NCBI GenBank assembly: GCA_035462935.1
Contig: DATHTS010000296.1
Location: forward strand, 1-30,652
Length of the DNA stretch: 30,652 nt
Direction of reading: 5' to 3'
Origin: Pyrinomonadaceae bacterium
GTDB taxonomy: Bacteria; Acidobacteriota; Blastocatellia; Pyrinomonadales; Pyrinomonadaceae
The stretch's first letter is position 1, and each line of letters opens with the position of its first letter. Both the position numbers and the translations under genes were made by a program. Shown in pieces: positions 11,549 to 23,990 of the stretch. The notes beneath the pieces are model-generated. The model did no database searches, was not told where the DNA came from, and saw only the letters and a program-made list of their open reading frames with translations.

Positions 11549-11667
11549 GAAATTAGCCCGTGAATAACGCTAATGAACACGAATTTCTTGAAATCAAATA
11601 ATTACTTTATTTGTAAAATCCTTTCTCTTATTCGCGTAAATTCGCGCCGATTCGCGGGCTAATTTTC
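11549..11667. repeat. Palindromic intergenic element with 10-bp periodic arms (MITE/REP-like)
   Basis: AATTAGCCCGTGAAT (11551-11565) versus ATTCGCGGGCTAATT (11650-11664) is an inverted repeat with 1 mismatch. ATTCGCG occurs at 11630, 11640 and 11650. Confidence 0.7.
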
Positions 11668-11688
11668 TTATCTCGAACAGAGCGCAGA

Positions 11689-12210
11689 TTAGGTTTTCTC
11701 CTTAAAGGGAAGCGGCGGCGGTTCTTCGCCCTCTTTCGGATAATCCTTGTTCAGGCTGTCGTAAATGCCGATAATCTGACCGATCCATTTTTTCGCGCCT
11801 TCATTGTTCGGGTCTAACTTCAAAGCGCGGCGGTAATCGCCGAGCGCCGAAGCGTATTGCCGCGCTTCGGTCAGGGCAAAACCGCGTTTGTAATAAGCTT
11901 CAGCCAGAGCCTTTTTCGCGGCTTCGTCATTCGGCTTTGAATTCAATTCCTTCTCGGTTTTGGCGATTTCCGCGTCAAATTCTTTTGTGTCAATCGGATC
12001 GCCGCTCTGCGTCCACTTGGTTTTGCCTTCAGATTTGGCAGCCGGAGGCGTTTGCCCCATTTTCGGGTCGCCCGAATGCGCCGTGACCGTCATGGTGTTG
12101 CTCGGTGTCGTCACATTGGAAACAGCGGTATTGGCAACCGGCTGCGGCTGAGATTGGCTGCAACTGATAAAAGCTAAACTAAATAAACTAATTGCTATAA
12201 TCTTTTTCAT
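11689..12210 (-). CDS. TPR-containing lipoprotein
   Basis: MKKIIAISLFSLAFISC lipobox from ATG 12210, then a P/T/Q-rich linker and TPR-like AEAYYKRG...ALKLDPNN. Confidence 0.85.
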   Translation of the reverse strand: MKKIIAISLFSLAFISCSQSQPQPVANTAVSNVTTPSNTMTVTAHSGDPKMGQTPPAAKSEGKTKWTQSGDPIDTKEFDAEIAKTEKELNSKPNDEAAKKALAEAYYKRGFALTEARQYASALGDYRRALKLDPNNEGAKKWIGQIIGIYDSLNKDYPKEGEEPPPLPFKEKT

Positions 12211-12225
12211 TTTAAAAAATAAATA

Positions 12226-12360
12226 AAAGGAACGCCAGCATCTTGCTGGCAAAGATTGCGTCAGCAATCTAAATGTGCTCGTTTTTATTCAATCTTGAAT
12301 AAACCTAGTCGTTTGTGAACGCTTGTGCGTTCATTGCCAGCAAGATGCTGGCGCTCCTTT
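12226..12360. repeat. Inverted pair of REP-like palindromes (BIME-like) with internal hairpins
   Basis: AAAGGAACGCCAGCATCTTGCTGGCAA (12226-12252) and its reverse complement at 12334-12360 differ by 1 mismatch in 27 nt. Each contains the hairpin GCCAGCA-TCT-TGCTGGC. Confidence 0.8.
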
Positions 12361-12365
12361 ATCTG

Positions 12366-14327
12366 TTAATTCTCAATATACGGGCGCGACTGTAAAATAA
12401 AAATCTGACCTTTTTGATAGCCCCATTCGATGTCCTGATCCTTTTTATTGCCGAATAATTTCTTGATTGCAAGCGCGGCATTGACCAAACTTCGCGCCGT
12501 TGCGTCAGTCAGCACTCTTCTTTCAACGGAAATAGGCGTTTCTTTCAAACCGCCGTTTTCGTCAAATTTGATCTCCGTTTCCTGATTTGAACGAGTTAAA
12601 ACCTGAACGGAATTCGATTTCGGCGTGAACAGAATCTGTTCGGGAATCCTCTCGCCTTTGCTGCTGCCCTCGCCGCCGACGACCTGGATGTTATGCCCGC
12701 GCGTCGCCGCGATATAAACCGCTCCTTTGTTTTCTTTATCGAACGGATCTTTCGTAATCATCACACCGCCGTTATCCATATTCACGCCGATTTGGATAAA
12801 AACGCCCATATACGTTCCGCGATGGTCTATAAAATTGCGCTCGCGGGTGTCGTAAGCATCGAAATTCCAGAGCGAAGCCCAGACGGTTTTCACCGCTTCG
12901 ATAAGTTTCTCTTCTTCCTTAACATTCGGAACGGTCGTGTAAAGTCCCGCGCCTGAAAAATTCGGCATATCCTCGGCGTTTGAAGAACTGCGGACGAAAA
13001 CGCCTTTTCCGCCGAGTTCGGTTCGCCATTTTTTGATAATTTCCGCTTTCAATTTTTCGTCAAACTCGGCGTTTTGAATCTCCTGGCGAAATTCTTCGAG
13101 CTTTTGCCGCCGGAAGCGCGGGTTATGCACAAAATCATATTCGATCATCAAATCGGCGATTTTATCGTCGAGATCGTGTTTATGCATAAATTCGTAGTAG
13201 TAATGAAAGGGAATCGAAAAGCCGTCGGGAACGGTAATGTTTGGAATTTTCGCGTTTGCCACCTCGCCCAAATTCGCGGCTTTCGCGCCGTAAGCGATGC
13301 TGTCTTTTTTGCCGATTTGTCTCAGCGCCGCCAGCCGCGTTATTTCCAGATTCGACGGCGGGGCTTTGAAAACCTTTCCTTTCTCCTCTTCCGCCGCGCG
13401 CCATTTATCCAAAACTTGCTTGTCGGCGAGTTTTATTTTGTAATCGGTCAGAGTGGTTTCAAACTCGACCCACCAGGTATCGTATTCCTTGAAGAGTTTG
13501 TCGGCGTCCTTAATGTAAGCGTTCGGAATACCCCAGCCTTTCGCCAGAATGTTGATGTGCGAAAGCGGCGAACTCGGTTTGGCAATAATAATTCCGGCAA
13601 CCGGCGGCAGATTTTGTGGAATTTCCTTCAAAACGATAATCTCGTTGTAGCCGATTTCCACCGTGTCGTCGAGCTTGTCAATAATATGGACGCGACCGAC
13701 GCCGCGAGCCGCGTTGAGCGCGAGATATTCCTGATTTTTTGAGATTTCGTCGGATGTTATGCGCTCGATGTCGAGATTAGCCGACAGCTCATCCTGTCGA
13801 ATCGAGTTCGGCTTGAAAGCGACCGGCTCGTGAAAAGTTTTATTGATAATATCGTAAGTCAGTTTAATTTGCTGGGCGGGAATCATATCGCCTTCCCAAA
13901 ATTCAAACGTAAACGCTTCGACCGTTTTTTGCCACGCGATTGTCCCGACGATAAAGCGCCGGTTTTCATTAATGTAAATGTTCTCGAAAAGATTTTCGCC
14001 TTTTAGAACGAGATAATTCCCGATTAAAAAATCCTTGTGAAAACGGTATTTCTGCGAATTGACGTAATAAATCTTGTTCTTGTTTTTGCGGTCAATCACA
14101 AACATCGCGTGCGGCAGAGCGTAGGGTGTATCCTTGTGATAAACCCGCGAAATCCGGTCGAAATCTTCCTGCGATTTTATTGCGGTCAAAAACCTGTCTT
14201 TGGCGTCCGGTTTAGTGACAGTCGCGTCTTTTGGCGCTCGTGTAGGCGAAGGTTTGCGCGTCATTTGAGCAAAACCTGAGATTGTAAAACATAAAATTAA
14301 AAGTGAAATTAAACTAATTTTTTTCAT
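12366..14327 (-). CDS. Exported PEP-synthase/PPDK-like protein (phospho-His swivel domain + ATP-grasp domain)
   Basis: Signal peptide MKKISLISLLILCFTISGFAQ from ATG 14327. Swivel motif GIIIAKPSSPLSHINILAKGWGIP. ATP-grasp motifs YGAKAANLGEV, VPDGFSIP, VRSSSNAEDMPNFSGAGLY, DIEWGYQKGQIFILQSRP. Confidence 0.85.
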   Translation of the reverse strand: MKKISLISLLILCFTISGFAQMTRKPSPTRAPKDATVTKPDAKDRFLTAIKSQEDFDRISRVYHKDTPYALPHAMFVIDRKNKNKIYYVNSQKYRFHKDFLIGNYLVLKGENLFENIYINENRRFIVGTIAWQKTVEAFTFEFWEGDMIPAQQIKLTYDIINKTFHEPVAFKPNSIRQDELSANLDIERITSDEISKNQEYLALNAARGVGRVHIIDKLDDTVEIGYNEIIVLKEIPQNLPPVAGIIIAKPSSPLSHINILAKGWGIPNAYIKDADKLFKEYDTWWVEFETTLTDYKIKLADKQVLDKWRAAEEEKGKVFKAPPSNLEITRLAALRQIGKKDSIAYGAKAANLGEVANAKIPNITVPDGFSIPFHYYYEFMHKHDLDDKIADLMIEYDFVHNPRFRRQKLEEFRQEIQNAEFDEKLKAEIIKKWRTELGGKGVFVRSSSNAEDMPNFSGAGLYTTVPNVKEEEKLIEAVKTVWASLWNFDAYDTRERNFIDHRGTYMGVFIQIGVNMDNGGVMITKDPFDKENKGAVYIAATRGHNIQVVGGEGSSKGERIPEQILFTPKSNSVQVLTRSNQETEIKFDENGGLKETPISVERRVLTDATARSLVNAALAIKKLFGNKKDQDIEWGYQKGQIFILQSRPYIEN

Positions 14328-14580
14328 TATTCTTATCTTCTTTTCCTTCGGGCAATCGGCGTTCAAACCTTGCTAATTCTCTTTCGACCCAAAGTTTTGT
14401 TTTATCGCTTTCGGCTTGGAGCGCATAAACCAGCACATCTATTTTTGCCGATTGTTGATTGACGATTTCTGATAAATGGGTGACATCTCGCCGCAAATTT
14501 TCAACGTCTTTTTCGAGGCGATCAACCCTGGAGGTAACCGTGAAAACCTTTGTCAAAAGGTCAAATAATTTCTCCAACAC
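14314..14580 (-). CDS. Small coiled-coil hypothetical protein (88 aa)
   Basis: GTG start lies 1 nt after the upstream TAA, and the 3' end overlaps the next ATG by 14 nt. Heptad-like VDRLEKDVENLRRDVTHLSEIV. Confidence 0.6.
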   Translation of the reverse strand: MLEKLFDLLTKVFTVTSRVDRLEKDVENLRRDVTHLSEIVNQQSAKIDVLVYALQAESDKTKLWVERELARFERRLPEGKEDKNNEKN

Positions 14581-14581
14581 T

Positions 14582-14812
14582 TTATTTCTCCAAAGAAATT
14601 TCCAAATTAGCCAAACGCTTAGAAACCCCTTTCATTATTTTTTCGGCTTCGTCAAGATTTCGCCTTGTTTCCTCGCGCATTTTGTCTATTCTCGCATCGC
14701 GTTCCGGGCTTTCCGCTTCCATTCTTCGCAGAATCTCTAAAGTCGCGTCTAAAAGTTTTTCAAAATCTCTCGCCTGATTTTCGCTCATCTCGAAAGTAAC
14801 TGTATTTGCCAT
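14582..14812 (-). CDS. Small helical hypothetical protein (76 aa)
   Basis: GGAG RBS-like sequence upstream of the ATG. Charged helical sequence, coupled to the 88-aa ORF. Confidence 0.65.
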   Translation of the reverse strand: MANTVTFEMSENQARDFEKLLDATLEILRRMEAESPERDARIDKMREETRRNLDEAEKIMKGVSKRLANLEISLEK

Positions 14813-14879
14813 ATCTCTAAACTCCTTTCGCCCTTATTTTACGCTATTTTCCGTCAAATTTCATTAAATAATTAAATCT

Positions 14880-16160
14880 TTAGCTCGCCGCTCGCGCTTT
14901 CGGTTTCTGCAAAATCGCCTCAATCGCGTCACACGCGGTTTCGGTTCCGCGCTCGGCTTCTACGATGCGTTTTGCTTCGAGCGCGTTTGATTTGTAGCTT
15001 AAATCTGCGAGTATTCTCTGTAGTTTTTTCGCCGCATTTTCCGCCGTATAATCATCGCGGGAAATTGTTTCGGCAACGCCGACGCGCTCGCATCGCGCAG
15101 CATTATCGGGCTGATCGTGGCTGTAAGGCATAATCAAATGCGGAACGCCCGCCCGCAAAACTTGAGCCGTTGTGCCGACTCCGCCTTGATGAACGACCGC
15201 CGCCGCTTTCGGAAAAACTTGCGAATAAGGGGCGTAATCAAACCCGACGATGTTTTCATCCAAACCTTTCGGCGGCTCGTTATAAACGCCGTAAAGCAAA
15301 ACGGCGCGGCGATTCAAAATGCGGGCGGCTTTCGCGCTTTCCTCGAAAAAATTTCCCGCATCCATCACGGCGGCGGAACCGAGCGTGAAAACAATCGGCG
15401 GCTCGCCATTTTCCAAAAATTCCGTCAAACCTTCGGGCATTTTGCCGAGATCGTCTTTCCCGTCGTAAAAGCAAAATCCGGTTTGCAGCGTCGGGCTGTG
15501 CCAATCGGGCTGCGGTTTTGAGAGAACTTTGGAAAACAGCGCGAGATGCAGCAAGTTTGAATTCTTACCGAAAAACACGGGATCGTGATTTTCATCCAAA
15601 CCGAGCGAGCGGCGAAATTCCCTGTAAGGCTCGAGCCAATCCCGAATCGTCCAACTCATCAGCTTGAAAATTCCCTGATGAAAACCGACCGGCAAAAATC
15701 TGAGATGCTCATACCATTGCGCGGTCGGATAAACGTTCGGGTCGTGCGCGGAAAAAAACGAAATCGGCGCGAGGCTGGTCGAAATCCATTTGATTCCCGT
15801 TTTCTCGACAACCGATTTTGCGACGTAAATAATCTCGCCCGTAATCAGCAAATCGGCGTCTTCGACCGCCTTCATTACGTCCTCATACATCGCCTGCAAA
15901 TTCGGCATTATAAGCTCGCGCAAAATCGTTTCCGTTCCCTTTTTGGCATCCATCAGCAATTTGCCGAACTCGCGGTCTTCCGGCGAAACAGTTGGGCGAA
16001 GAGGCGAGAGTTCAAACCCGAGCGATTCGATTTTTTCGCGGTAAAATTCCATCACGTTAAAAACGACATCGTGCCCGCGCCGCCTGAGTTCAAGACCAAG
16101 CGCGATCTTCGGATGCAAATCGCCGAGTGAGCCAAAGGTTGATAAAACGATTTTCGACAT
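14880..16160 (-). CDS. GT1-family NDP-glycosyltransferase (rhamnosyltransferase/sterol GT-like)
   Basis: STFGSLGDLHP N-terminal motif, VFTLGSAA, VVHQGGVGTTAQVLRAGVPHLIMPYSHDQPDNA. Confidence 0.9.
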   Translation of the reverse strand: MSKIVLSTFGSLGDLHPKIALGLELRRRGHDVVFNVMEFYREKIESLGFELSPLRPTVSPEDREFGKLLMDAKKGTETILRELIMPNLQAMYEDVMKAVEDADLLITGEIIYVAKSVVEKTGIKWISTSLAPISFFSAHDPNVYPTAQWYEHLRFLPVGFHQGIFKLMSWTIRDWLEPYREFRRSLGLDENHDPVFFGKNSNLLHLALFSKVLSKPQPDWHSPTLQTGFCFYDGKDDLGKMPEGLTEFLENGEPPIVFTLGSAAVMDAGNFFEESAKAARILNRRAVLLYGVYNEPPKGLDENIVGFDYAPYSQVFPKAAAVVHQGGVGTTAQVLRAGVPHLIMPYSHDQPDNAARCERVGVAETISRDDYTAENAAKKLQRILADLSYKSNALEAKRIVEAERGTETACDAIEAILQKPKARAAS

Positions 16161-16175
16161 AAAACTTTAAATAGA

Positions 16176-16255
16176 GAAACAACGGATTAACGTAAATTTA
16201 CACGGATTATTAAATTTAATAAAATCTGCGAAAATCTGTGCTAATCCGTTGTTTC
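16176..16255. repeat. 80-bp palindromic element with 10-bp periodic arms
   Basis: Perfect 14-bp terminal IR GAAACAACGGATTA/TAATCCGTTGTTTC, with a central perfect palindrome TTATTAAATTTAATAA (16207-16222). Confidence 0.75.
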
Positions 16256-17151: not shown

Positions 17152-18087
17152 TTATGTTTCTCTGATTTCCTCCCGCGCGATGTCTTCCGCTAATTTCTGC
17201 TTGCGGTTTCTCTTTAAAAAATAACGAACCAGCAGATAAATCGGCAGAACGATAAACAGCAAAAAGGGCAAAAGCCCGATGAAAAGCGTGACTAAAACGA
17301 GAAGAAAATTGAGCGCGAAGTTAAAACCGGTGCTGACTGCTTCTTTAAGCTGGTAGAAAAAGCCCGAAGAACTGGTCGAAAAAGCCTGCGGAGTTTGAAT
17401 GCGGATTTTAATGGTCGAAAGGCTCGTCTGATTCTCCAGAAAACGCAGGCGACCTTCGATCTGCTCGATTTCCGTGCGGACGTTTCCCAATTCTCTCTGC
17501 ACATTCAAAGCGTCCTGCACCGAATTTGAACGCTTCATAATCTCCAGAAACTGTTCTTCAAGCGCCTTTTTTGCCCGCAAACGCGCCTGAACGTCAACAA
17601 ATTCTTCCGTTACATCTTTTCCCTCGATTGTTTCGACAATTACGCGGCTTGCCGTCGGGCGAATTTCGTTCAAAGTTTCATTGAATTTTTCAGCAGGAAC
17701 GCGCACGGACATTGAAACCGTATCCCGTGTTGTAACTTGGGAATTACTGCTGTTTTGTGTGGATTGGATAACAAAACCGCCTTTGCTTTCAACAATCGCA
17801 GCGATTTTCTGCTGCGTTTCTTCGGGCGTATTGGATTCGAGTTGTAAATCGGCGTTGCGGATGATTTTTCGCTCGGTTACGGTCGGCGGAGTTTGATTAT
17901 TAGCGGATTGCTCGAGCGAGACCTGTTGAGGCGGGGCGCTCGGATTATTTGCGACCTTTTCGCGGCTTTGAGTAACCGAATCGCTCTGTTCTATTGAACT
18001 TGGCGTATTTGTCGCTTGCTCACTTGCCGCAGAACAGGCGGTTAATGAAACAAATAGAAGAAACACAGTAAACTTGGCTTTTTTCAT
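17152..18087 (-). CDS. DUF4349-family lipoprotein
   Basis: Lipobox SLTAC, ERKIIRNADL, VRVPAEKF, DVTEEFVDVQARL, coiled coil, C-terminal TM. Confidence 0.88.
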   Translation of the reverse strand: MKKAKFTVFLLFVSLTACSAASEQATNTPSSIEQSDSVTQSREKVANNPSAPPQQVSLEQSANNQTPPTVTERKIIRNADLQLESNTPEETQQKIAAIVESKGGFVIQSTQNSSNSQVTTRDTVSMSVRVPAEKFNETLNEIRPTASRVIVETIEGKDVTEEFVDVQARLRAKKALEEQFLEIMKRSNSVQDALNVQRELGNVRTEIEQIEGRLRFLENQTSLSTIKIRIQTPQAFSTSSSGFFYQLKEAVSTGFNFALNFLLVLVTLFIGLLPFLLFIVLPIYLLVRYFLKRNRKQKLAEDIAREEIRET

Positions 18088-18132: not shown

Positions 18133-18759
18133 TTAACCCGCCTTGCGTGCAACTTCCTTGAAACTCTCGCCGCGAAAAAGCGCGCGAATGCCTTTGAATA
18201 AACGACTGATGGCGCGAAAAACCTTCGGCGCGAACCAGACGAAGAAAATTAGAAATATGATTAAAACAATTGCTATCAAAATTGGCGCGACGACGGCAAG
18301 AATTGCGCCGATAATCGCCAATACATCTTCTGCAAGAGACAAAGCCCAATTTGAAACCGGTTCGGGCGAAAGATTCGCTCCGGCGCGAAGCGCGGCTTTC
18401 GTCCCGTGCGAAGATAAAGCCAAACCGCCGCCGAGCAAAGCCGCGATAACGCCGACGCTCGCATCCATCTCGTTCGTCGCCGAATACGCGACAATCGCGC
18501 CCGCCGGAACGCGGATAAACGTATGAATCACATCCCAAACGCTGTCCACATACGGAATTTTATCGGCGAAAAATTCGATTAAATAAAGAAATCCGGCAAC
18601 GCCGATTATCCACCAGTTATCGAGAACGTCTAAACCACCCGGCAGTTTCGTCGCGCCGAATTTCTGCAAAAGTCCCAGAACCGTCACGGTCGCATAAAGA
18701 TTGATGCCGGAAGTCCAAGCCGTTCCCAGCGCCAAACTCAACGTCGAAAACCATTCCAT
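18133..18759 (-). CDS. DUF4126-family membrane protein
   Basis: AWTSGINLYAT, IEFFADKIPYVDSVWDVIHTFIRVPAGA, SPEPVSNWALSLAED. Confidence 0.88.
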   Translation of the reverse strand: MEWFSTLSLALGTAWTSGINLYATVTVLGLLQKFGATKLPGGLDVLDNWWIIGVAGFLYLIEFFADKIPYVDSVWDVIHTFIRVPAGAIVAYSATNEMDASVGVIAALLGGGLALSSHGTKAALRAGANLSPEPVSNWALSLAEDVLAIIGAILAVVAPILIAIVLIIFLIFFVWFAPKVFRAISRLFKGIRALFRGESFKEVARKAG

Positions 18760-18778: not shown

Positions 18779-18846
18779 TAACATTTATCATTAAACATTA
18801 AACAAAAAACGAGTGATAAATGATGAATGTTCAATGATAAATGTTA
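18779..18846. repeat. Palindromic element with heptamer-periodic arms
   Basis: TAACATTTATCATTAAACATT (18779-18799) versus AATGTTCAATGATAAATGTTA (18826-18846), 1 mismatch. Units TGATAAA/TGATGAA/TGTTCAA/TGATAAA. Confidence 0.7.
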
Positions 18847-20187
18847 CTCTTCCTCTTCCTCATTTCCGTCGCGCTTAATACCGAATTTTTCCAGCCGATA
18901 CTGCAAAGTTCGGAACGTTAAACCCAATAATCTAGCCGATTTCGTAATGTTGTAATCCGTCCGTTCCATCGCCTGCATAATCAAGCTGCGCTCGACATCT
19001 TCAAAATTCACGCCTTCCGCCGGGAGTTTGAAAATATCGCCGGAAGCGGCGGTGGAAGTTTGATTGAGCATTTCGGGCGGTAAATCTTCCGGTGTGATTT
19101 TATTGTCTTCGCACAATAAGCTGGCTCGCTCGATTGCCGATTCCAATTGGCGGACGTTGCCCGGATAATTGTAGTTTTCCAAAATGCGTTTGGCTTCCGC
19201 GCTCAGTTCGATCTGACGGTCGGTGCCGCGCGTGTGTTTTTTTATAAAGTAATCAATTAGAAGTTGGGTGTCCGAGCTTCGTTCGCGCAGCGGCGGGATT
19301 TCGATGGAAAGAACGTTCAGGCGATAATATAAATCCTCGCGGAAACGCTTTTCTTCAACCATTTTCAGCAAATCACGGTTGGTTGCCGTCACGACGCGCA
19401 CATCAATATCAATTTCCTTCGTTCCGCCGACGCGCCGGATTTGTCTTTCCTGCAAAGCGCGAAGCAATTTTGCCTGTAAGGAAACATCGAGTTCACCGAT
19501 TTCATCCAAAAACAAAGTTCCGTTATCGGCAACTTCAAACAAGCCTTTCTTTTCAGCAACCGCGCCGGTAAACGAGCCTTTCTCGTGTCCGAATAGCTCG
19601 CTTTCGAGAAGATTTTCGTTAATCGCGGCGCAGTTTACGGCTTGGAAAATCTGGTTTGAACGCGGGCTGTTTTGGTGAATCGCGCGGGCAATCAATTCCT
19701 TTCCCGTTCCCGATTCGCCGCGAATCAAAACCGTCGAATTCGATTTGGCGACTTTCAAAATCAGCTTTTTCACCTTGTCCATTTCCGGTGAAGCGGAGAC
19801 GATTTCCGCGTCGAGCGTGGAAAGCTTATTTAGGGCGCGGGAAATTGTTTCAAGCAGCTTTTCGCGGTCGTAAGGCTTCTGCAAATAATCGAACGCACCG
19901 AGCCGGAGCGCGTCAACCGCCGAATCTACCGAACCGTGCGCCGTTAAAAGGATGACGATGATTGATTTGTCAAAATTCGTCAGTTCCTTCAACAAATCCA
20001 GCCCGCTCATCCCGGTCATTTTCAAATCGGTCAAGACCAGATCGAAACGCCTGTCAGCGACAAATTTCAATGCCGCTTCACCGGAACTCGCGGTCGTCAC
20101 GTCGTAGCCTTCGCCCGACAAAATCATCTCCAAAATCTCGCGCTGAGATTTCTCGTCATCTACAACTAAAATGCTTTTTCTTGCCAT
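18844..20187 (-). CDS. sigma54-dependent response regulator (NtrC family: REC-AAA+-HTH_8)
   Basis: LVVDDE, LTDLKM (phospho-Asp), GESGTGKE, ESELFGHEKGSFTGA, LFLDEIGEL, FREDLYYRLNV, YPGNVRQL, C-terminal HTH. Likely start is ATG 20187. Confidence 0.95.
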   Translation of the reverse strand: MARKSILVVDDEKSQREILEMILSGEGYDVTTASSGEAALKFVADRRFDLVLTDLKMTGMSGLDLLKELTNFDKSIIVILLTAHGSVDSAVDALRLGAFDYLQKPYDREKLLETISRALNKLSTLDAEIVSASPEMDKVKKLILKVAKSNSTVLIRGESGTGKELIARAIHQNSPRSNQIFQAVNCAAINENLLESELFGHEKGSFTGAVAEKKGLFEVADNGTLFLDEIGELDVSLQAKLLRALQERQIRRVGGTKEIDIDVRVVTATNRDLLKMVEEKRFREDLYYRLNVLSIEIPPLRERSSDTQLLIDYFIKKHTRGTDRQIELSAEAKRILENYNYPGNVRQLESAIERASLLCEDNKITPEDLPPEMLNQTSTAASGDIFKLPAEGVNFEDVERSLIMQAMERTDYNITKSARLLGLTFRTLQYRLEKFGIKRDGNEEEEE

Positions 20188-20357
20188 AAAATTTCTCTTG
20201 TATTTTAAATTCAATCGTAGTATAAACAAATTTGTAAATAAAGCCTGTCAAATCCACTGAAACTCCCGAAGAAGCTTTCTTCCCTAGCTTCAGGCTTTTC
20301 ACTCGCCTTTATTTACCTGGGAAAATTAAACATCAAATTTTTTTGGAGGTAAGATAA

Positions 20358-21410: not shown

Positions 21411-22271
21411 ATGAAATTCAAATCAATTTTAATTGCCTACTTTGCATTGCATATTCTGTTATTTATTAACGGAAAACTCGCGCCAAATATAAAATGGAAT
21501 TTTGTCGGCAGTTTTCTTGTCTGTTGCTTCTTTACAATTTTTTGTATTAAGAAATTTAATGACGGAAAGCCGACTTTCAGGGTTTTGTTCACCTTAATTC
21601 TGCTGAGATTATTGCTTTTAGGCGGATTGGATTTATATGTTCGTTTAGCGGAAGATTTATATGGTTCTCCTATTTTAATAATTGCTTTGCTCGGCATTAT
21701 TTCCGGCTTTTTTTATCTTAGGCTAAATAGTCCTTTTAATTTAGCCCCCTTTGTGTTCAGTTCTATATTTGTGGCTTTTATGTTTTTTCAAGGCTGGGAT
21801 TATTATCAGCATAAATTACATTACCAAAGTTTTACGGGTAGAGTAGAGGCATTTAAATTGCAACAAAGGATTGAAGGAATTGATGAAAAAGGCAATCGAA
21901 TTGATAATCAATACTTTGAAAACAAAATTTCATTACTCGATTTTTGGAATACAAAGTGTGGGATTTGTTTTGAAAAATTCCCTCAGTTACAAACCTTCTA
22001 CGATAAATATAAAGATGATAACTCGATTATTATTTATGCTATAAATAAGCCAATTGAGGAAGATACACCAAAGACTGCTTTTCAAATAATCAAAGAAAAA
22101 GGCTACACCTTTCCCGTTTTGCTGCCGATTGATCAGGAACTGCCCGAAAAATTCGGTGTCGAAGGTTACCCTACAACTTTCGTTATCAATCAAAATAGTC
22201 AAATTGTTTTTAAAGGCGATATTTCAGGCGCAGTTAAAATGGTTGAGGAATTAAAATTAAACTCTCGGTAA
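21411..22271 (+). CDS. Membrane-anchored TlpA/ResA-family thiol-disulfide oxidoreductase
   Basis: About 5 N-terminal hydrophobic segments, LLDFWNTKCGIC (CxxC at 21957-21968), GYPTTF cis-Pro loop. The 3' end overlaps the convergent kinase by 15 nt. Confidence 0.88.
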   Translation: MKFKSILIAYFALHILLFINGKLAPNIKWNFVGSFLVCCFFTIFCIKKFNDGKPTFRVLFTLILLRLLLLGGLDLYVRLAEDLYGSPILIIALLGIISGFFYLRLNSPFNLAPFVFSSIFVAFMFFQGWDYYQHKLHYQSFTGRVEAFKLQQRIEGIDEKGNRIDNQYFENKISLLDFWNTKCGICFEKFPQLQTFYDKYKDDNSIIIYAINKPIEEDTPKTAFQIIKEKGYTFPVLLPIDQELPEKFGVEGYPTTFVINQNSQIVFKGDISGAVKMVEELKLNSR

Positions 22272-23810
22272 CCTTACAGAAAATTTCGTTCCTTCATTCA
22301 ACTTTGATTCAACCTCAATCGTGCCGTTATGATCTTCAATAATTTTCCTGACAATTGCCAAACCCAAACCTGTTCCAGTTTCTTTTGTGGAAAAATACGG
22401 CTCGAAGATTTTCGACAAATTTTCTTCAGAAATCCCCGCGCCGGTATCTGCGACTTCAATTTTAACAACATTTTCATCCGGCGAAACGGTTACGCTCAAA
22501 TTCCCGCCCGTGTTTTCCATCGCCTGCACAGCGTTAATAAAAAGATTGCTGAAAACCGAACGCAAAACTTCCGGGTCGCCCAAAATATTCGGAACATTTT
22601 CGCGCTCGACGAGGCTGATTTTTACGTTCTGCTCTTCGGCTTGCGGTTCGATAATTCGTAAAGAGCTTTCGACAACTCTTCGCGCTTCAATCGGCTGCAT
22701 ATCCAATTTTAAGGGGCGCGAATAGCGCAGGAAATCGGAAACCTGGCGGTTGATTCGTTCGACTTCTTTTTTAAGCTGTTCGGTCAGTTTTTCAAACGTC
22801 GCTTGTTTTTCCGGTTCTTCCGGCGTGAATTTCGAGCGCAGATGGTCGAGCGTGAGATTAATGTAATTTAAAGGATTGCGGATTTCGTGGGCGATTGCGG
22901 ACGCGAGCCGACCGACGACCGCCGATTTTTCGGCTTCCTGCAGCTGCGCTTCGAGTCGGCGCGACTTTTCCAGTCCGGCGGTCATTTCGTTAAACTGCGA
23001 AGTCAACCTGCCCATTTCGTCGGTTCGCCCGGATTCGGGAACGCGCACGCGCAAATCGCCTTCCGCCACGCGCCGCGCCGCTGTTGAAAGATTGGCAATC
23101 GGGCGCGTGAAACGCCAGACGAGATAAAAAGTTATCAGCGTTGAAGCCAGCAAAATGGCAAGCGTGTAGATCAAAGGCTGCGCGGCGCGAAAAGCCGTCG
23201 CGCCTTTTTCCGATCTCAAAACAACCATTACATACCAGCGTCCTTCACTGGTCTGAATTGGAATGACGTGCGACTCGCCTTCGATTTCAATTGCTTCGGC
23301 GGAATTAATCTCTTGTCCTTGATTGGTTTCGGGCGGAACTATTTGCGGTTTGACGCTGCTGCTTCCCGGAAGATTCACGTTCGGAAAATGCTTCAGGTCT
23401 TCGCCAAGCCGGGTGCCTTCGGTCGGAGGCGGCAAATTTTTCAAGTCCTTCAAATTCAAATAAACCGGCTTGCCGTCTTCGCCGGTGGTCGGAAGATAAT
23501 CGGGATTGAGACTGTCCCAAATCTGCCATTCATCGTTAATAACTATAATGTCCTTGATGCGTACATTGAAATTTTCGTCAAAATACGTCTGTCCTTCGCG
23601 GTTGATGATATCCTTCATATATTCCTGCGAAGTCAAACCGCTGATGGCGAGCGCGATTCCCGACAAAATAGCTTGCTCCTGCATTTCGCGCAGATCGTTG
23701 TTTTCTTCCTGCGTTTTGTAGTTCAAATAAAACTGGATGCCGAGCGTGATAATTAAGAGAAACGCCAGAATTACCAGCAGCTTGCCGCGAAATGTGTTGA
23801 AGAAATTCAT
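22257..23810 (-). CDS. Membrane sensor histidine kinase (periplasmic sensor-HAMP-HisKA-HATPase)
   Basis: Two TMs, HAMP (RTDEMGRLTSQFNEM), H-box AIAHEIRNPL, N-box NLFINAVQAM, DTGAG, FEPYFSTKETGTGLGL. Likely start is ATG 23810. Confidence 0.95.
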   Translation of the reverse strand: MNFFNTFRGKLLVILAFLLIITLGIQFYLNYKTQEENNDLREMQEQAILSGIALAISGLTSQEYMKDIINREGQTYFDENFNVRIKDIIVINDEWQIWDSLNPDYLPTTGEDGKPVYLNLKDLKNLPPPTEGTRLGEDLKHFPNVNLPGSSSVKPQIVPPETNQGQEINSAEAIEIEGESHVIPIQTSEGRWYVMVVLRSEKGATAFRAAQPLIYTLAILLASTLITFYLVWRFTRPIANLSTAARRVAEGDLRVRVPESGRTDEMGRLTSQFNEMTAGLEKSRRLEAQLQEAEKSAVVGRLASAIAHEIRNPLNYINLTLDHLRSKFTPEEPEKQATFEKLTEQLKKEVERINRQVSDFLRYSRPLKLDMQPIEARRVVESSLRIIEPQAEEQNVKISLVERENVPNILGDPEVLRSVFSNLFINAVQAMENTGGNLSVTVSPDENVVKIEVADTGAGISEENLSKIFEPYFSTKETGTGLGLAIVRKIIEDHNGTIEVESKLNEGTKFSVRLPRV

Positions 23811-23990
23811 AAATACGGTCTTTTGATAAAATTTTTTCAAAAAAACTTGATTTACAGCCGTTTTGAATGTTATAGTCTTTTTCAGCTTAGAAGCAAATTT
23901 TGAAAGATTCGGTTTTCCCCAAATAATCGGGTTTTTTTGCTCTTCCCGAAAGCATTCCAGAAAATTCAATTTTAATGAGGTAAAAAAGCG

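Follow-up and report, generated by a model that had tools for sequence, protein, structure and literature searches.

The minus strand of a contig from a Pyrinomonadaceae bacterium (Acidobacteriota, class Blastocatellia; assembly GCA_035462935.1, contig DATHTS010000296.1) carries an intact gene at positions 12366-14327, with 653 codons and a stop. We refer to the whole analyzed stretch of 30,652 nucleotides as the window. The product of this gene is, on balance, probably an exported three-domain dikinase that operates through a histidine on a mobile swivel domain. It begins with a Sec-type signal peptide, followed by an N-terminal domain specific to its family (the N-domain), the swivel domain with the phospho-acceptor residue His257, and a C-terminal ATP-grasp domain. 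A first-pass annotation, made from the letters of the window, had described this domain anatomy and singled out His257; both observations are confirmed here. The kind of enzyme is known, while its predicted location, its N-domain and its presumed acceptor appear to set this family apart. We also put forward, tentatively, a broader reading, with the protein as a core enzyme of the envelope in Blastocatellia. It would then be the type member of a multi-phylum group of extracytoplasmic, ATP-dependent dikinases that phosphorylate an envelope or extracellular polymer, as glucan water dikinase (GWD) does with starch. In full-text literature searches we came across no publication on bacterial dikinases that are exported and have this architecture. 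The ATP-grasp protein described in PMC11957051 is cytoplasmic.

The longest minus-strand open reading frame (ORF) at the locus spans 12366-14366, and its first codon, the in-frame TTG at 14366, is a mechanical ORF start. The ATG at 14327 yields a protein of 653 amino acids with the MKK... N-terminus common to its homologs (120 homologs with 62-82% identity). This start lies upstream of the hydrophobic segment, in agreement with the first-pass annotation, and the signal is conserved across lineages. A start downstream of that segment is excluded because the residue following Gln21 varies among the homologs (Met, Leu, Val, Ala, Tyr or Pro); they also have no conserved internal methionine.

The two domains of the catalytic module are the swivel phospho-histidine domain with its linker helix (amino acids 196-315, positions 13383-13742, minus strand) and the PPDK_N ATP-grasp nucleotide-binding domain (amino acids 330-653, positions 12369-13340, minus strand; Pfam E 2.4e-51). 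Conservation was read from an alignment, A1, of 50 full-length relatives with 26-78% identity to the query. There are 25 invariant columns in A1, including His257 and His97 of the N-domain. The codon of His257 is at 13557-13559, precisely where the first-pass annotation had placed the phospho-histidine. The residue sits in the context P-S-T-P-L-S-H-x-N-L-L-A, which in part of the family reads L-S-H-V-N-L-R-A, and a phmmer alignment puts it on the catalytic histidine of the T-S-H motif in phosphoenolpyruvate (PEP) synthase 8a8e. The invariant ATP-grasp residues are K349, R446, S447, E452, D453, E563, D632, E634 and Q646, and the motifs G-x-K, V-R-S-S-x-x-A-E-D, D-I-E-W and Q-S-R-P align with those of PEP synthase and rifampin phosphotransferase (RPH). 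Within these motifs, G-x-K, V-R-S-S, E-D, D-I-E-W and Q-S-R do not vary among the 50 relatives. Since all catalytic residues are invariant, the protein looks like a competent enzyme and not a relic.

Profile searches gave a consistent picture of this module. The Pfam model PF01326 (PPDK_N) matched amino acids 347-650 with 175.4 bits against a cut-off of 27. A match to the PEP-utilizers model was sub-threshold in this protein (amino acids 240-268, 11.4 versus 23.1 bits, E 0.26); among the 50 relatives, 18 had such matches at E<=1 (best E 2.8e-4) and 9 matched GWD1_pHisD (best E 9.4e-4). A His-swivel dikinase is recognized by a mobile domain with a conserved phospho-acceptor histidine, and here we find the invariant His257 together with the alignments to PEP synthase and to the plant starch dikinases PWD and GWD. 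The Pfam scan of the protein gave no match to the PEP-utilizers_C barrel and the chain terminates with the ATP-grasp domain, so that the PEP/pyruvate-binding barrel is indeed missing, as had been claimed.

A structure predicted by AlphaFold2 from A1 (mean predicted local distance difference test, pLDDT, 89.8; predicted template modeling score 0.87) consists of a tail, the N-domain, the swivel domain with its linker helix and the ATP-grasp domain. The best fold match in Swiss-Prot was Arabidopsis PWD (Q6ZY51, E 1.2e-30), colinear with the query over amino acids 194-650. It was followed by rice PWD and by GWD1/GWD2 of Arabidopsis, potato and Citrus, whose alignments ran from amino acid 194 or 200 to 650 or 651. 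The colinearity bears out the GWD-type domain order proposed in the first-pass annotation. Fold alignments with PEP synthases, RPH, YvkC and PigC were restricted to amino acids ~328-650, and matches in the PDB covered the ATP-grasp domain only, the best being RPH (5hv1, E 6e-23).

The published order in GWD1 is CBM45, CBM45, central domain, His domain, ATP-binding domain (PMC13553574). Like GWD1 and PWD, the bacterial protein has an acceptor part, then the phospho-His domain, then a C-terminal ATP-grasp; part of the bacterial family shares the L-S-H-V-x-L-R-A-type His motif with GWD and PWD, and by analogy the beta-phosphate relay is presumed to be the same. On the other hand, the bacterial protein lacks the GWD central domain and gave no Pfam match to CBM45 or CBM20, its N-domain has a different fold and lies outside the fold alignments, it is about half the size, and it is predicted to be exported rather than plastidial. 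Where it aligns with PWD and GWD, 18-20% of the residues are identical, compared to 24-30% for the ATP-grasp domain alone against PEP synthase and RPH. Because identity to the plant enzymes is the lower of the two, we claim a shared architecture with GWD and not membership in its family.

The bacterial enzymes of this chemistry are related in another way. The ATP-grasp domain is homologous to that of PEP synthase (9dae, E 1.1e-24 with a single sequence; 8a8e, 9e-67 with the family profile), and the swivel domain is homologous to that of PEP synthase and pyruvate, phosphate dikinase (PPDK), with the catalytic histidine aligned. Both of these enzymes, however, have an N-terminal ATP-grasp, a central His domain and a C-terminal TIM barrel, whereas the protein studied here has the domains in reversed order, lacks the PEP/pyruvate TIM barrel and carries a signal peptide. 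RPH (5hv1; its relatives are PigC, RedH and YvkC) is likewise a three-domain dikinase with a swivel histidine and a non-pyruvate acceptor, but it is a cytoplasmic enzyme in which the ATP-grasp comes first, then the acceptor (rifampin-binding) domain and last, at the C-terminus, the His domain. The NCBIfam models of PEP synthase, RPH and PigC/RedH match through the ATP-grasp domain only; the scores were 165 and 154 bits for the two PEP synthase models (cut-offs 598 and 740) and 123 bits for the RPH model (cut-off 999). A cytoplasmic PEP synthase with a mis-called start was rejected on the grounds of the reversed order, the missing barrel, the low NCBIfam scores and the conserved signal. The first-pass annotation had named this possibility, a downstream start and a non-conserved histidine as the ways in which it could be wrong, and we found none of the three to be the case.

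Several exported homologs (P0016, P0024, P0076, P0078, P0308, P0329 and others) carry public names such as "pyruvate, phosphate dikinase", "phosphoenolpyruvate synthase", "pyruvate, water dikinase" or "rifampicin phosphotransferase". Neither the domains nor the NCBIfam cut-offs support these names, and they mislead metabolic and resistome inference.

The N-domain (amino acids 44-195, positions 13743-14198, minus strand) is an alpha/beta domain that AlphaFold2 folded confidently when modeled alone (pLDDT 94.9). The first-pass annotation had spoken of an unrecognized N-terminal domain of about 190 amino acids. Its unrecognized character stands, but the length needs refinement: the region consists of a 23-residue tail of low confidence and a folded domain of ~150 residues. 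His97 (codon 14037-14039) is invariant among the relatives in A1; conservation is 90-92% at D147, G128 and F56 and 84% at D79 and R123. The conserved positions are mostly aromatic, with the polar set D79, H97, R123, E142, D147, S175 and Q178. No relative of the N-domain was found in the PDB, either with Foldseek (best E 0.64) or with an exhaustive VIA-align comparison to 48,161 chains (best Z 4.1, which is at noise level, as unrelated models typically reach 7-8).

Most clear matches to the N-domain in the AlphaFold Database clusters and the ESM Atlas were its counterparts in other PPDK_N proteins. The remaining ones were a 201-residue stand-alone protein, a VCBS-repeat protein, and proteins of 324-451 residues without a PPDK_N Pfam match. 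An Atlas feature search with the N-domain gave scores <=0.80, which we treat as a lead only. The N-domain co-occurs with the His/ATP-grasp module in at least five phyla. From its position and conservation we presume that it binds the acceptor or takes part in the transfer.

Between the signal peptide and the N-domain lies the low-confidence tail of the mature protein (amino acids 21-43, positions 14199-14267, minus strand; pLDDT 54-59). It contains the motif Q-x-x-R-K-P-S-P-T-R, which in its longer form Q-x-x-R-K-P-S-P-T-R-E-P was present in 106/120 close homologs and in 9/60 distant relatives. These nine carriers are the nearest of the distant representatives, and one of them clusters as Leptospiraceae. 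The motif Q-x-x-R-K-P-S-P-T-R was not found in a separate Bacteroidota branch of the family. The motif may serve in sorting, belong to a propeptide, or provide the enzyme itself with a Ser/Thr site.

Export is indicated by several kinds of evidence. The signal peptide, read from the sequence (amino acids 1-20, positions 14268-14327, minus strand), opens with a basic MKK n-region, continues into a hydrophobic core free of charges and ends in G-F-A before Gln, with predicted cleavage at G-F-A|Q (A20|Q21). Our crude heuristic called a signal wherever a stretch of 12 or more uncharged residues, hydrophobic at its core, lay near the N-terminus and behind a basic residue. By this measure 115/120 close homologs and 51/60 distant full-length relatives were positive, as were 106/120 members of the separate Bacteroidota branch (Chitinophagales, Saprospiraceae, Cytophagales), so that a conserved and apparently cleavable signal of a Sec-exported protein was found in three sequence sets. 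As a control, 8 of the 23 other ORFs in the window were positive, and 7 of those 8 are evident membrane or exported proteins. Most of the negative homologs begin at the cleavage site or just past it, and their starts look mis-called. Signal peptides are kept in relatives down to ~30% identity. Acidobacteriota have them, as do a Leptospiraceae cluster and further distant relatives of unestablished taxon, and several distant relatives have lipoprotein-type (lipobox-like) signals. One distant relative, P0207, starts with a twin-arginine-type (Tat) signal, S-R-R-A-V-L-T-S-L-G-A-G, instead of a Sec signal.

The amino acid composition points in the same direction. The mature protein has 0 Cys residues compared to 5.4 expected (Poisson P ~0.004, with 0.86% Cys in the other ORFs of the window). 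The 120 close homologs have none in 100 cases, exactly two in 19 and one in a single case, and this pattern of zero or two is the one that would be expected for folding in an oxidizing compartment.

Besides that, giant relatives of 1,000-3,200 amino acids carry the same module beside fn3, Calx-beta, Ig (AIR9-type), cadherin and Big_9 domains. In one Bacteroidota Atlas cluster with the same N-domain and PPDK_N, 23% of the proteins have the C-terminal sorting domain of the type IX secretion system (T9SS; Por_Secre_tail). Other Atlas clusters of the same architecture have LTD domains (73%, Myxococcota) or EF-hands (55%, Planctomycetota). The four independent lines, namely signals, Cys pattern, extracellular fusions and T9SS tails, agree and support export, and a cytoplasmic location of the dikinase looks unlikely.

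The gene is widespread in its own lineage. In a search of sampled genomes with this protein (P0001) at E <= 1e-50, it was found in 61/61 Pyrinomonadaceae genomes (60/60 genera), mostly as a single copy and never interrupted by a stop. This set includes two unpublished genomes, G017 and G032, and the count is 59/59 without them. In a phylum-wide sample, 19/19 Pyrinomonadaceae genomes had the gene, as did 7/9 Blastocatellia genomes from other families and 1 of ~271 genomes of other classes. The dikinase has the status of a core gene in Pyrinomonadaceae and in Blastocatellia. A housekeeping role is suggested because it is present in every family genome and in 7/9 of the other-family genomes of the class.

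The nearest named homologs come from Pyrinomonadaceae, Aridibacter, Blastocatellaceae and "Chloracidobacterium" metagenome-assembled genomes (MAGs). Outside the phylum we observed one 42%-identical cluster from Turneriella/Leptospiraceae, and structure-based clusters add Myxococcota, Bacteroidota, Verrucomicrobiota and Planctomycetota. A library of 50%-identity representatives contained 639 proteins at E <= 1e-30. The source of the window is itself a soil-metagenome MAG in 976 contigs, 86% complete.

We infer every chemical step of the catalytic cycle from the established chemistry of PEP synthase, PPDK, RPH and GWD (for GWD, PMC13553574). The protein would cross the inner membrane by Sec, with the signal cut at A20|Q21, and the C-terminal ATP-grasp domain would bind Mg-ATP. 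The beta-phosphate would then pass to His257 on the mobile swivel domain, while AMP would leave and the gamma-phosphate would leave as inorganic phosphate (Pi). The swivel domain would carry the His257-bound phosphate on to an acceptor that bears a hydroxyl group and sits on the N-domain specific to this family, where His97, Asp147 and Arg123 are candidate catalytic or binding residues for this step. ATP would thus be the donor, and the phosphate would be transferred to something other than water. A specific acceptor is favored over water because the N-domain is confidently folded, is conserved (with the invariant His97 and a polar cluster), and travels with the catalytic module across at least five phyla. 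The acceptor would most likely be an extracytoplasmic envelope polymer, an extracellular polymer or a glycan.

A number of points weigh against phosphorylation of such a polymer outside the cytoplasm. In the textbook view, the periplasm and the cell surface are without ATP, and phosphorylations in the envelope use lipid-linked or other donors. We know of no ATP source outside the cytoplasm, and Sec export rules out charging of the protein in the cytoplasm before it leaves. A TLC-type ATP/ADP translocase (PF03219) was not found in the organism's own genome, at its 86% completeness, and among the 61 family genomes PF03219 occurred in only one, as a weak match, while the dikinase is in all 61. 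At nine related loci, too, the called genes did not include it. The TLC translocase as supplier of ATP does not hold for the Pyrinomonadaceae clade. Besides the question of the donor, the N-domain has no characterized relative, and nothing in the Foldseek, VIA-align and predicted-structure library searches indicates a particular acceptor. The genes next to the dikinase are not conserved outside Pyrinomonadaceae, and the sequencing runs that contain the sequence are soil-metagenome DNA only. Finally, GWD itself also passes phosphate to water (PMC13553574), and water could be the physiological acceptor here as well.

The last point leads to the main rival, which we regard as unlikely. The protein might be an extracytoplasmic converter of ATP to AMP and two Pi, a "water, water dikinase" working on ATP released by lysis. 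The benefit would be the scavenging of phosphate and nucleotides or the removal of extracellular ATP, and the N-domain would be regulatory or structural. The documented GWD1 route to water and the conserved catalytic residues are compatible with such a reaction, no acceptor could be deduced from the N-domain searches, and the organism comes from soil, where lysis-derived nucleotides are a resource. Still, simple phosphatases and nucleotidases suffice for this task without a three-domain swivel machine. The conservation of the N-domain with its invariant His97, and its co-inheritance with the module across phyla, argue for a specific bound substrate, and the status of a core gene in one class would be unusual for an accessory scavenging enzyme. 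Phosphorylation of an acceptor and scavenging of ATP, the two functions proposed in the first-pass annotation, are not separable in silico.

Two other explanations are less likely. It seems improbable that the protein is a secreted effector that acts in or on leaking prey or competitor cells, by depleting ATP or phosphorylating a foreign target, with the TPR lipoprotein encoded next to it as an immunity or docking factor. Surface-attached and predatory lineages (Myxococcota, Bacteroidota with T9SS tails) often have members of the family, which also includes giant adhesin-like fusions, and in 68/85 related loci the gene after the dikinase encodes an exported lipoprotein. PPDK_N is also among the frequent domains of giant proteins in predatory Omnitrophota, where it was listed without analysis (10.1101/2023.11.21.568195); we count this on the side of an effector. 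A mostly single-copy, syntenic core gene found throughout the family is, however, distributed otherwise than polymorphic effector-immunity pairs are. No delivery gene of the type VI secretion system or contact-dependent-inhibition type was found among the Pfam-annotated genes around the dikinase in the window, and the TPR lipoprotein was not found beside the dikinase outside Pyrinomonadaceae. Very improbable, in our view, is a protein that is not extracytoplasmic at all (an uncleaved anchor with its bulk in the cytoplasm) or a non-catalytic binding module of dikinase descent. ATP-grasp enzymes are otherwise cytoplasmic, which is the reason to consider it. Yet the N-terminus follows the classic n-h-c plan, its h-region being short and its small-x-small|Q site conserved, and does not resemble a long transmembrane anchor. 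The lipoprotein and Tat-type signals of relatives, the zero-or-two Cys pattern, and the fusions to extracellular modules and a T9SS tail speak against a cytoplasmic protein, and the invariance of all catalytic residues argues against a pseudoenzyme.

If the reading as an extracytoplasmic dikinase for an envelope or extracellular polymer is true, diderm bacteria would keep a usable ATP pool, or an unrecognized supply of phosphoryl donor, outside the cytoplasm. Activity of the enzyme outside the cell would mean that ATP or another nucleotide is available there in useful amounts, or that a new donor chemistry exists, and its product would be a new phosphorylated component of the envelope or matrix. 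The distant relative P0207, with its Tat-type signal, would be exported folded and could therefore exit the cytoplasm already loaded or phosphorylated. In the broader reading it is also conceivable that the plant starch dikinases obtained their His-then-ATP-grasp catalytic module from this bacterial family. The question is directly testable, since the gene is universal in the sampled Pyrinomonadaceae and public names suggest cultured members of the class.

Within Pyrinomonadaceae the gene has characteristic neighbors. Directly downstream and on the same strand, in the 68 loci counted above and in the window, is the gene of the TPR lipoprotein (11689-12210, minus strand; start ATG at 12210, signal ending in F-I-S-C), while a GT1 glycosyltransferase gene precedes the dikinase in 59/85 loci. 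The lipoprotein may be a partner of the dikinase. A complex prediction for amino acids 22-653 of the dikinase with amino acids 36-192 of the lipoprotein returned a score of 0.00, which gives no answer and is not evidence either way. Further upstream in the window, all on the minus strand, a recurring block comprises a DUF4349 lipoprotein (17152-18087), a DUF4126 membrane protein (18133-18759), a sigma-54 response regulator (18844-20229) and a HAMP histidine kinase (22257-23969). The complete series of histidine kinase, sigma-54 regulator, DUF4126, DUF4349, GT1, dikinase and TPR genes occurs, in part or as a whole, at many Pyrinomonadaceae loci.

At six loci of other Blastocatellia families none of these neighbors adjoins the dikinase, and at the one such locus where the flanking ORFs were scanned the surrounding genes were unrelated. 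Nor were they found beside it in Leptospiraceae, at two loci of unestablished taxon or at one locus of a giant protein. Because the neighbors were not found beside the dikinase outside Pyrinomonadaceae, we read the synteny as lineage inheritance and not as a functional operon.

Two coiled-coil ORFs, of 76 amino acids (14582-14812, minus strand) and 88 amino acids (14314-14580, minus strand), sit between GT1 and the dikinase. Both lack a signal peptide and have sub-threshold Pfam matches only. The second overlaps the start of the dikinase by 14 nucleotides, and the same type of overlap is seen in the related loci L004 and L005. The pair was present in only 12-13 of the 85 loci and always in the same place; it is an optional part of the locus.

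The intergenic regions contain palindromic elements. Between the dikinase stop and the TPR start, a 19-nucleotide GC-rich palindromic hairpin occurs in two copies of opposite orientation (12335-12353 and 12233-12251), ~100 nucleotides apart. On the minus strand the second copy (12233-12251) is followed by a run of T just before the ATG of the lipoprotein gene, and together they look like a terminator. An inverted repeat with 33-nucleotide arms (79% complementary, with a 14-nucleotide spacer) is located at 16176-16255, just upstream of the GT1 start at 16160. The 19-nucleotide hairpins are probably related to the palindromic elements of the region 11549-16255.

Elsewhere in the window, an amidase gene at 1008-2603 on the plus strand (Pfam Amidase, E 1.9e-103) encodes a twin-arginine-like N-terminus, R-R-Q-F-L-E-I-T-A-L-G-S-A-A-A.

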